The translations under genes and the position numbers were made by a program. From the NCBI RefSeq assembly GCF_003334335.1, contig NZ_QOWQ01000010.1: a DNA stretch of 64,000 bases, one strand, 5' to 3'. Shown here one piece after another: positions 37,739-38,011 of this stretch. The first letter of the stretch is position 1; the number at the start of each line of letters is the position of its first letter. The notes below the pieces were generated by a model, which saw only the letters and a program-made list of their open reading frames with translations, ran no database searches and was not told the DNA's origin. This stretch comes from Escherichia coli. Its GTDB lineage: Bacteria; Pseudomonadota; Gammaproteobacteria; Enterobacterales; Enterobacteriaceae.

Positions 37739-38011
37739 ATGAATATTTATACCTTTGATTTTGATGAGATTGAGAGTCAGGAGGATTTTTATCGTGACTT
37801 TAGCCAAACCTTTGGTCTGGCGAAAGATAAGGTACGCGATCTCGACTCACTATGGGATGTGTTAATGAACGATGTCCTGCCGCTACCACTTGAGATTGAA
37901 TTTGTTCATCTGGGAGAGAAAACGCGTCGCCGTTTTGGCGCGTTAATATTGCTGTTTGATGAGGCAGAGGAAGAGCTGGAAGGGCATTTGCGTTTTAATG
38001 TTCGTCATTAG
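37739..38011 (+). CDS. yhcO: barstar-like (ribonuclease inhibitor family) protein, orphan
   Basis: 90-aa acidic [45 protein letters not shown]..., barstar-family signature pattern; no barnase-like gene adjacent. Confidence 0.85.

Follow-up and report, generated by a model that had tools for sequence, protein, structure and literature searches.

Here we examined the gene yhcO of Escherichia coli in a stretch of 64,000 nucleotides (nt) of its genome (NCBI RefSeq assembly GCF_003334335.1, contig NZ_QOWQ01000010.1; hereafter the window), and found that this gene is the surviving inhibitor half of an ancestral unit formed by an aldehyde dehydrogenase gene (aldH), a gene for a barnase-type ribonuclease (RNase) and a barstar gene, from which the RNase gene was excised without leaving a detectable remnant. 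The explanation that we hold, as a whole, to be moderately probable is that yhcO is an orphaned barstar from an operon that lost its RNase gene, that selection has kept it and that it now performs another role. The gene occupies the following position in the window:

37739..38011, plus strand: yhcO coding sequence, 90-amino-acid (aa) acidic barstar-fold protein.

The open reading frame (ORF) starting with ATG spans exactly these coordinates, with 90 translated codons, and its product is acidic, having a pI of 4.48 and 21 aspartate or glutamate residues against 10 lysine or arginine residues. The gene order in the window is yhdP, tldD, aaeR (minus strand), aaeX, aaeA, aaeB, yhcO, yhcN (minus strand), argR (minus strand) and mdh. 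The 801 bp around yhcO match E. coli chromosomes at 100% identity; there the gene bears the annotation 'yhcO: barstar family protein' and its neighbours are annotated aaeB and yhcN. This region was found in all 5426 complete E. coli genomes searched, with a coverage of at least 80% in 5419 of them. A preliminary description of the same DNA, made from its letters alone, had spoken of a 90-aa acidic product lying between aaeB and yhcN, resembling barstar and having no barnase-like toxin nearby; the ORF, the pI and the annotation agree with the first part of that description, and the analyses that follow bear out the rest.

YhcO is a genuine barstar-fold protein. Its sequence matched the Pfam Barstar family (PF01337) with an E value of 2.4e-9 over residues 1-81 of 90, and the BLASTP comparison with the barstar of Bacillus amyloliquefaciens yielded 27% identity at an E value of 2e-6 (24-27% over the comparisons made). 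The sequence is moreover identical to that of PDB entry 2CX6, titled 'Crystal structure of ribonuclease inhibitor Barstar'. It shares about 77% of its residues with PDB entry 5F4C from Salmonella, which was likewise deposited as a ribonuclease inhibitor Barstar. An AlphaFold model built from an alignment of 27 sequences (predicted local distance difference test, pLDDT, 95.8), which replaced a poor single-sequence model that was set aside (pLDDT 68.6), superposed on 2CX6 with a template modelling (TM) score of 0.99 and on the barstar chains of barnase complexes with TM scores of 0.81-0.82 and a root mean square deviation of 2.0 A, in keeping with the barstar alpha/beta fold of a three-stranded parallel sheet and four helices. 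The preliminary description had proposed a structural comparison with barstar and had said that a lack of structural likeness would speak against its reading; the likeness is there, and this test had in effect already been done by structural-genomics groups. Neither the NCBIfam models (for YhcO) nor the PADLOC anti-phage defence models (for YhcO and the Serratia RNase) gave any match.

Alignment of YhcO with the Bacillus barstar (PDB entry 1BRS and others) places barstar residues D35, W38, D39, E76 and E80 on D36, W39, D40, E75 and E79 of YhcO. The DxxxD motif of helix 2, formed in barstar by D35 and D39, is a feature of the Imm-Barstar family (Zhang et al. 2012, PMC3482391), and reads D36-S-L-W-D40 in E. 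coli YhcO. The two proteins thus have the fold, the length, the acidity and the Pfam family in common. They differ at barstar residues Y29, Y30, G31, N33, T42 and W44, which are D, K, V, D, M and D in YhcO, in a one-residue insertion that YhcO carries before the PLP motif, and in genomic context, as yhcO has no adjoining barnase gene; judged from the sequence, RNase binding by YhcO is putative. Of the features of the Barstar and Imm-Barstar families, the profile match, the fold and the DxxxD motif are all present in YhcO and adjacency to an RNase gene is absent in E. coli; the orthologous loci of Yersinia, Serratia, Hafnia, Edwardsiella and Xenorhabdus do show it.

Searches for an RNase partner confirmed the orphan status of the gene. 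In the window, tblastn with barnase and three enterobacterial barnase-type RNases as queries, at E values up to 10, yielded chance matches only (E of at least 0.29), and no significant barnase homologue was detected by tblastn within 7 kb on either side of yhcO in 80 Enterobacteriaceae species, these loci being the closest 80 of 279 relatives. A more lenient tblastn search for remnants of an RNase gene (six RNases, E up to 1) in the Enterobacteriaceae loci, Biostraticola and Acerihabitans gave nothing credible. A match of 16-17 aa at 37634-37684 of the window lies on the minus strand, across the terminator of aaeB, and its likeness to the RNases is limited to their hydrophobic signal-peptide part. 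Further matches (loci L048 and L045, E 0.06-0.28) lie antisense inside degQ; all of these were rejected as chance. When the DNA of the Serratia RNase-barstar pair was compared with the 5426 E. coli genomes, only the conserved 3' part of yhcO matched and the RNase part never did. The barnase-domain query found no match in 50,697 phage records, and on 72,556 plasmids its matches were confined to Bacillus, Clostridium, three other genera and two mis-filed Proteus chromosomes. These last are the Proteus mirabilis records NZ_OL790811.1 and NZ_OL790812.1 of PLSDB, which carry a barnase homologue and, at 4.08 Mb, are chromosome-sized and apparently mislabelled. Named homologues of the enterobacterial RNase come from Xenorhabdus, Photorhabdus, Morganella, Yersinia, Serratia, Hafnia, Erwinia and Pantoea, and the named proteins among the best 120 of 1549 homologues include none from Escherichia, Salmonella, Citrobacter or Enterobacter. 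E. coli K-12 is not known to have an RNase of the N1/T1/barnase family.

The gene also departs from the types of toxin-linked gene to which an antitoxin or immunity protein might be expected to belong. It is monocistronic between two terminators, encodes a single barstar domain and has no adjoining toxin ORF, which sets it apart from type II antitoxins. Its neighbours (aaeB, yhcN, argR and mdh), its presence in 5426 of 5426 genomes and a synteny conserved across genera set it apart from the orphan cassettes of polymorphic toxins, namely those of Rhs, contact-dependent inhibition (CDI) and type VI secretion system (T6SS) loci. With the orphan cdiI and rhsI cassettes it shares being an immunity-type protein without a toxin, Imm-Barstar being tied to barnase-like toxins (Zhang et al. 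2012); however, those cassettes usually form strain-variable arrays beside Rhs, CDI or T6SS loci, whereas yhcO is part of the core genome, occurs once, stands among housekeeping genes, is inherited vertically and descends from a simple barnase-barstar pair.

The descent of yhcO was read from the intermediate lineages, which were reached through representatives at 50% identity, the list of RNase homologues and contig look-ups with exact proteins. In Yersinia pseudotuberculosis (locus L086) the order is aaeR-aaeX-aaeA-aaeB-Aldedh-RNase-Barstar, the RNase belonging to PF00545, and Serratia liquefaciens (L087) shows the same order without aldH. Hafnia has Aldedh-RNase-Barstar in an upstream context different from that of Yersinia, and Edwardsiella has the RNase-Barstar pair. 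In Xenorhabdus-type loci the order is yhdP, a CN-hydrolase gene, tldD, RNase and barstar, the barstar gene lying immediately 3' of a PF00545 RNase gene of 149-156 codons; the barstars of these tldD-RNase-barstar loci are the nearest full-length relatives of YhcO beyond its close orthologues (45% identity). Identity to barnase amounts to 59-62% in the Xenorhabdus-type RNases tested, whose N-terminus is hydrophobic and resembles a signal peptide; they have kept the WxEAD, GxRxxxR and DHY motifs, in which the catalytic Glu, Arg and His of barnase lie. The aldehyde dehydrogenase encoded by aldH belongs to the succinate-semialdehyde dehydrogenase (SSADH) subfamily.

In most genera of Enterobacteriaceae the order is aaeB, Aldedh, yhcO, and in Escherichia, Salmonella and part of Citrobacter aldH is missing as well. 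The run yhcO-yhcN-argR-mdh is kept at all 80 Enterobacteriaceae loci, preceded by tldD, aaeR and aaeXAB where the locus reaches so far, and the RNase gene is present in none of the 80. (One of these loci, L048, carries the label Chryseobacterium sp. 18061, apparently in error, as its tldD-aae-yhcO-yhcN-argR-mdh arrangement is typical of Enterobacteriaceae.) In the window 91 bp lie between aaeB and the barstar gene. The same interval measures 2408 bp in Yersinia, with aldH and the RNase gene inside it, and in Serratia, where the RNase gene is inside it, 698 bp. Orthologues of aaeB, 59-99% identical, stand upstream of the barstar gene in Enterobacteriaceae, Yersinia, Serratia, Biostraticola and Acerihabitans. 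Because Yersinia and Serratia present the same aaeXAB/aldH neighbourhood, yhcO is the positional orthologue of the paired barstars, which are its orthologues by sequence too: the paired barstars of Yersiniaceae, Hafniaceae and Morganellaceae are 44-55% identical to YhcO (51-55% for those of Yersinia and Serratia), and the C-terminal KRRFGA(I/L)ILLF(E/D) segment is nearly identical between YhcO and the barstars of the latter two genera. Unlike yhcO, the paired genes lie 4-5 nt 3' of an RNase gene. In a neighbour-joining tree the orphan sequences were monophyletic and the clade tracked genera, which is consistent with a single loss of the RNase gene at the base of the family. The suggestion of the preliminary description that yhcO might be an immunity gene retained after toxin loss is therefore upheld as history, since an RNase gene stands directly 5' of the orthologous barstar gene in Yersinia, Serratia and Hafnia. 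Its two other suggestions, a defence against RNases from outside and a repurposing of the gene, bear on present function, and there the shifted constraint, the core-gene status and the Salmonella deletion phenotype described below lean towards the latter.

Gene order and sequence show that the ancestral operon of Enterobacterales, lying just downstream of aaeXAB and still intact in Yersinia, comprised a putative sigma-S-type promoter, an SSADH-like aldH, a barnase-type RNase gene and a barstar gene; that the RNase gene was cleanly deleted in the common ancestor of Enterobacteriaceae; and that aldH was lost later in Escherichia, Salmonella and some Citrobacter, so that yhcO came to stand directly after the promoter that it had inherited. 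Short remnants of the 3' end of aldH (codons for ...EVKTLHIGGL and the stop) were observed between aaeB and yhcO in Salmonella and in the Citrobacter freundii group (L013, 6900-6960; L014, L016 and L023), and a similar one between aaeB and the RNase gene of Serratia liquefaciens (L087, 7900-7960), and from these remnants it follows that aldH was lost several times independently. In Yersinia pseudotuberculosis the DNA between aldH and the RNase gene (L086, 7800-8000) is AT-rich, with repeated units resembling aatgatat(g/t) and aattgta just 5' of the RNase start codon, and might be a regulatory or repeat element. An RNase-barstar pair on a 5.3-kb contig labelled Klebsiella pneumoniae (L088, 3145-3874) was considered as a further ancestral pair and rejected, having an unrelated context (an AI-2E transporter, a periplasmic binding protein and Virul_Fac) and a divergent barstar; the contig may be a contaminant, or the pair may belong to an accessory locus.

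The loss of the RNase gene took place a second time. Biostraticola tofi has the order aaeRXAB, Aldedh, barstar, yjgA, pmbA, with a gap of 97 nt between Aldedh and barstar and no RNase gene, and Acerihabitans has the same order, also without the RNase gene and with aaeB and aldH fragmented. In both, the downstream genes are yjgA-pmbA, as in Yersinia, and not the yhcN-argR-mdh that follow yhcO; N34 is kept and the insertion at residue 46 is absent, which indicates that this loss was separate from the one in Enterobacteriaceae. The residue equivalent to Asp39 of barstar is L in Biostraticola and Q in Acerihabitans and the F-G motif is gone, and the C-terminal half of the protein is almost unchanged. 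As far as the sequences tell, the same history has thus occurred twice with the same outcome, the C-terminal half being kept and the Asp39 equivalent being replaced. In the genome of Acerihabitans sp. KWT182 (L089, 2400-5900) aaeB and aldH lie in frame-shifted pieces that are not called as genes and look like pseudogenes, and the barstar ORF is intact.

Analysis of the selective constraints after the loss of the RNase gene was based on ω, the ratio of nonsynonymous to synonymous substitution rates, obtained by the Nei-Gojobori method and summed over 32 phylogenetically independent species pairs with synonymous distances (dS) of 0.16-1.0 (about 0.5). The value for all codons (1-88) was 0.105, and by segments it amounted to 0.129 (codons 1-27), 0.183 (codons 28-47), 0.086 (codons 48-62) and 0.023 (codons 63-88). 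Under such purifying selection yhcO is clearly functional; an unbroken ORF was found in 80 species, which represent more than 15 genera. Pairwise ω values for the neighbours argR, mdh, aaeA and aaeB ranged between 0.01 and 0.08, and those for yhcN were mostly 0.03-0.2 with one pair at 0.44, yhcN being the fastest-evolving of the genes around yhcO. That residues 28-47 are neutral or positively selected was considered and rejected, as their ω of 0.18 indicates relaxed yet purifying selection.

The next comparison took in 79 distinct orphan sequences and, on the other side, 117 barstars of Enterobacterales that come mostly from RNase-bearing genera (hereafter paired barstars). Mean pairwise identity is 74% among the orphans and 64% among the paired barstars, and yet residues 28-47, the loop and helix 2 by which barstar plugs the barnase active site, are more variable in the orphans (entropy 1.35 against 0.91), whereas residues 63-90 are far less so (0.28 against 1.02). 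The paired barstars keep the motif (F/Y)G.NLDALWD..TG at 87-99% (79% at position 33), and this same motif is the most variable region of the YhcO clade. Thus position 31 is F in 92% of the paired barstars and most often K (34%) in the orphans, position 34 is N in 96% and D in 68%, position 37 is A in 95% and S in 70%, and position 40, the Asp39 equivalent, is D in 96% (112 of 117) and in only 61%, the 79 orphans having D in 48, E in 26, S in two, and H, Q and K in one each. Likewise, T at position 43 falls from 99% to 51% and G at position 44 from 87% to 68%. The excess of variability at interface positions chosen in advance over that elsewhere was significant (Mann-Whitney P = 0.0009), the list of positions following the 1BRS literature. 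R63-R65, G67, L69 and the C-terminal stretch are invariant or nearly so in the orphans only, and D36, W39, E75 and E79 are invariant in both sets. Read from these alignments, the constraint on the protein is inverted, with the barnase-plugging segment being the most variable and the C-terminal RRR...LRFN segment with its acidic helix almost invariant.

The control of yhcO seems to be a legacy of the same operon. The features around the gene are the following:

35680..37647, plus strand: aaeB, p-hydroxybenzoate efflux pump subunit, upstream neighbour and synteny anchor (ORF and annotation).
37654..37679, plus strand: intrinsic terminator of aaeB, a ACCGACGC/GCGUCGGU hairpin and then a U run, read from the sequence (-16.9 kcal/mol, z -5.55).
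37685..37691, plus strand: sigma-S-type -10 element CTATACT (C then TATACT), putative yhcO promoter, from sequence conservation.
37692..37738, plus strand: 5' leader and deletion scar, the site of aldH and the RNase gene in Yersinia, from interval comparison.
38023..38061, no strand assigned: two hairpins between yhcO and yhcN, from the terminator scan (fold -23.3 kcal/mol, z -4.48).
38023-38039, minus strand: GCCCCCG-AAC-CGGGGGC hairpin with its T run on the minus strand, yhcN terminator, from the terminator scan.
38042-38061, plus strand: second hairpin, which may stop yhcO transcripts.
38067..38330, minus strand: yhcN, YdgH/BhsA-like peroxide/acid stress protein, convergent downstream neighbour (ORF; the 87-aa start was inferred from the annotated product).

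The aaeB terminator did not appear in the output of the pattern scan and was verified by RNA folding, and its hairpin is conserved in other genera. To judge from these elements, the terminator separates yhcO transcription from that of the aae operon and yhcO is a transcription unit of its own. Between the terminator and the start codon lie about 60 nt, with CTATACT, which closely resembles the sigma-S -10 consensus, and a GGTGG Shine-Dalgarno-like motif at 37728-37732. The string gGCTATACTta (37683-37693 of the window) stands directly 3' of the aaeB terminator in Escherichia, Salmonella, Citrobacter, Enterobacter and Buttiauxella, and in Serratia it stands between the aaeB stop codon and the RNase gene (sites at L042 5450-5465 and L087 7775-7790, and after aaeB in L069, L012 and L013); its counterpart at the same place in Yersinia is GCTATAAT. 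The string ahead of the Serratia gene suggests that the enterobacterial barnase-type RNase operon is itself expressed in stationary phase, and we infer that the stationary-phase control of yhcO was inherited from an operon making its RNase in that phase. Such inheritance of the promoter would explain the RpoS-dependent, stationary-phase and acid-stress expression of yhcO: transcriptomics found the gene to be RpoS-dependent in E. coli O157:H7 (PMC2907692), and it has been reported to be activated by LldR (PMC10272880) and induced by acid shift (PMC2270276).

A deletion phenotype is on record in Salmonella Typhimurium, where STM3363 is described as a hypothetical protein with a barstar-like domain (PMC4534456). 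The arms of the primers used for its deletion correspond in the Salmonella locus to the 40 nt 5' of the start of the yhcO orthologue (exactly) and the 40 nt 3' of its stop (with one mismatch), so that STM3363 is the yhcO orthologue. The clean deletion raised swarming to 1.36 +/- 0.21 of the wild type (n = 14) and left swimming (1.02 +/- 0.13) and the number of flagella unchanged (PMC4534456). This swarming phenotype arises in pure culture, without any RNase.

Whether YhcO has left its ancestral function or still exerts it in some form is the point on which the possible explanations differ. We judge the chances to be about even that YhcO has ceased to be a dedicated inhibitor of barnase and has been taken over for an endogenous role in stationary phase. 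Such a new role is favoured by the nature of the gene, a universal, slow-evolving core gene under RpoS control being unlike an immunity gene engaged in an arms race, by the release of the barnase-recognition residues from constraint and by a deletion phenotype that needs no RNase. YhcO would then act as a small acidic protein that mimics nucleic acid and binds a basic partner through D36, W39, E75, E79 and the acidic helix 4. In its more specific form, that of an RpoS-controlled RNA mimic whose invariant RRR... surface binds or modulates a nucleic-acid-binding protein of the host (another RNase or a regulator of surface motility), this proposal is tentative, and we would put it at somewhat less than an even chance. 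Several points weigh against the explanation as a whole or limit it. The invariant D36, W39, E75 and E79, together with a position 40 that is acidic in 74 of the 79 orphan species, correspond to the energetic hot spots of barstar, so that YhcO may have retained some RNase binding, and the interface segment (28-47) is still constrained (ω 0.18). The swarming effect of the STM3363 deletion is mild and we found no complementation of it; the papers found call the function of YhcO unknown, and they name neither a partner that it binds, nor a biochemical activity, nor a phenotype in E. coli. The promoter assignment is putative, drawing on sequence conservation and the published RpoS dependence. Membership of the paired set of barstars was decided from the genus and from seven loci that were checked, and the few orphan-type sequences inside it make the contrast with the orphans a conservative one. 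Finally, the E. coli chromosomes were searched for barnase at the DNA level only, and such a search could miss a toxin tip of barnase-like type in one strain or another if it had diverged very far.

The hot-spot residues are also what an alternative explanation can draw on, according to which YhcO is a guard of lower specificity that still neutralises foreign RNases of the barnase family, be they from Serratia, Hafnia, Yersinia, Proteus or Bacillus or the tips of Rhs, T6SS and CDI toxins. The conserved fold and DxxxD motif (D36...D40), the acidic residue that 94% of the orphan species have at position 40 and the purifying selection on the gene would all fit it, as would the spread of barnase-type RNases in sister families that share the habitats of E. 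coli and the standing of Imm-Barstar as a recognised immunity family for Tox-Barnase polymorphic toxins (PMC3482391). Even so, we regard this explanation as only about half as probable as a new endogenous role. The contacts conserved at 87-99% in paired barstars (F31, G32, N34, A37, D40, T43 and G44) vary in the orphans, and in five species the Asp39 equivalent is replaced by S, H, Q or K. Orphan immunity genes are typically patchy and fast evolving, unlike a core gene found in every genome with a C-terminal ω of 0.02. In the searches reported above, barnase homologues on plasmids were limited to Bacillus, Clostridium, Proteus and a few others, and the phage records had none. Secreted barnase-type enzymes are not known to enter the cytoplasm of Gram-negative cells. 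In long cloning practice barnase is reportedly lethal to E. coli, or cannot be maintained in it, unless barstar is co-expressed (Hartley 1988, J Mol Biol 202:913), which argues that the chromosomal yhcO does not protect growing cells, at least, from classical barnase to any effective degree.

Three further explanations have much lower probabilities. It is very improbable that the partner RNase resides elsewhere in the E. coli genome or pan-genome and that yhcO is not a true orphan, an idea that gains from the restriction of the chromosome search to DNA and from the divergent barnase-like toxin tips (BECR fold) known in proteobacteria (PMC3482391), but that meets with the lack of any match to the RNase part of the Serratia DNA in the 5426 genomes, with the fruitless searches of plasmids, phages and the window, and with the absence of Escherichia, Salmonella, Citrobacter and Enterobacter from the named best 120 of 1549 RNase homologues. 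Still less credit can be given to the idea that yhcO is a decaying relic, functionless and merely still present since the RNase gene was deleted: the relaxed interface segment and the lack of a function established in the literature agree with decay, but ω values of 0.105 overall and 0.023 in codons 63-88, an ORF intact in 80 species and 5426 of 5426 E. coli genomes, a protein that folds and crystallises, a regulated expression and the Salmonella phenotype all speak against it. The least credible of all is that yhcO was acquired horizontally as a stand-alone immunity gene and never had an RNase at this locus. Orphan immunity cassettes are indeed common in polymorphic toxin systems (PMC3482391); nevertheless yhcO shares its position with paired barstars in the aaeXAB(-aldH) context, shares with their loci the promoter element and aldH remnants, forms a monophyletic clade that tracks genera and lies neither in a mobile-element nor in a toxin-locus context.

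The gene, its family assignment and two crystal structures were already public, and hence yhcO is not a discovery of this work. Our literature searches on yhcO and barstar homologues brought up expression lists, a single paper on in-silico annotation and the motility study in Salmonella, with no functional study of YhcO among them, and in the literature searched no paper describes the evolutionary history, the shift in constraint or the second independent loss. These three are what we add, a modest addition that reveals no new kind of system. They explain why E. coli has a barstar without a barnase, and make of yhcO a clean and doubly replicated natural experiment on the fate of an immunity protein after the loss of its toxin. 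Should the new endogenous role of YhcO prove true, it would document how an immunity protein turned into a regulator of the cell, and Biostraticola and Acerihabitans would provide a second, independent replicate. The chromosomal yhcO is also worth remembering when barnase and barstar are used as a kill switch or for counter-selection in enterobacteria.

Some minor observations concern the gene and its surroundings in other genomes. In several genera a tandem pair of YdgH/BhsA-like genes of the yhcN family lies downstream of yhcO (L013, L015, L019 and others, at 7270-7700; L001, 4330-4975), where E. coli has one. Metagenome-derived YhcO entries often measure 105-137 aa instead of 90 (P0001-P0006, P0029-P0032), and three metagenomic entries bear an additional PF04397 label, with the match to YhcO confined to residues 1-80; these entries are probably alternative start calls or frameshifted assemblies and not real fusions. 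A distant relative of 255 aa (P0214) carries its barstar domain at residues 173-251, behind an N-terminal region of 170 aa.

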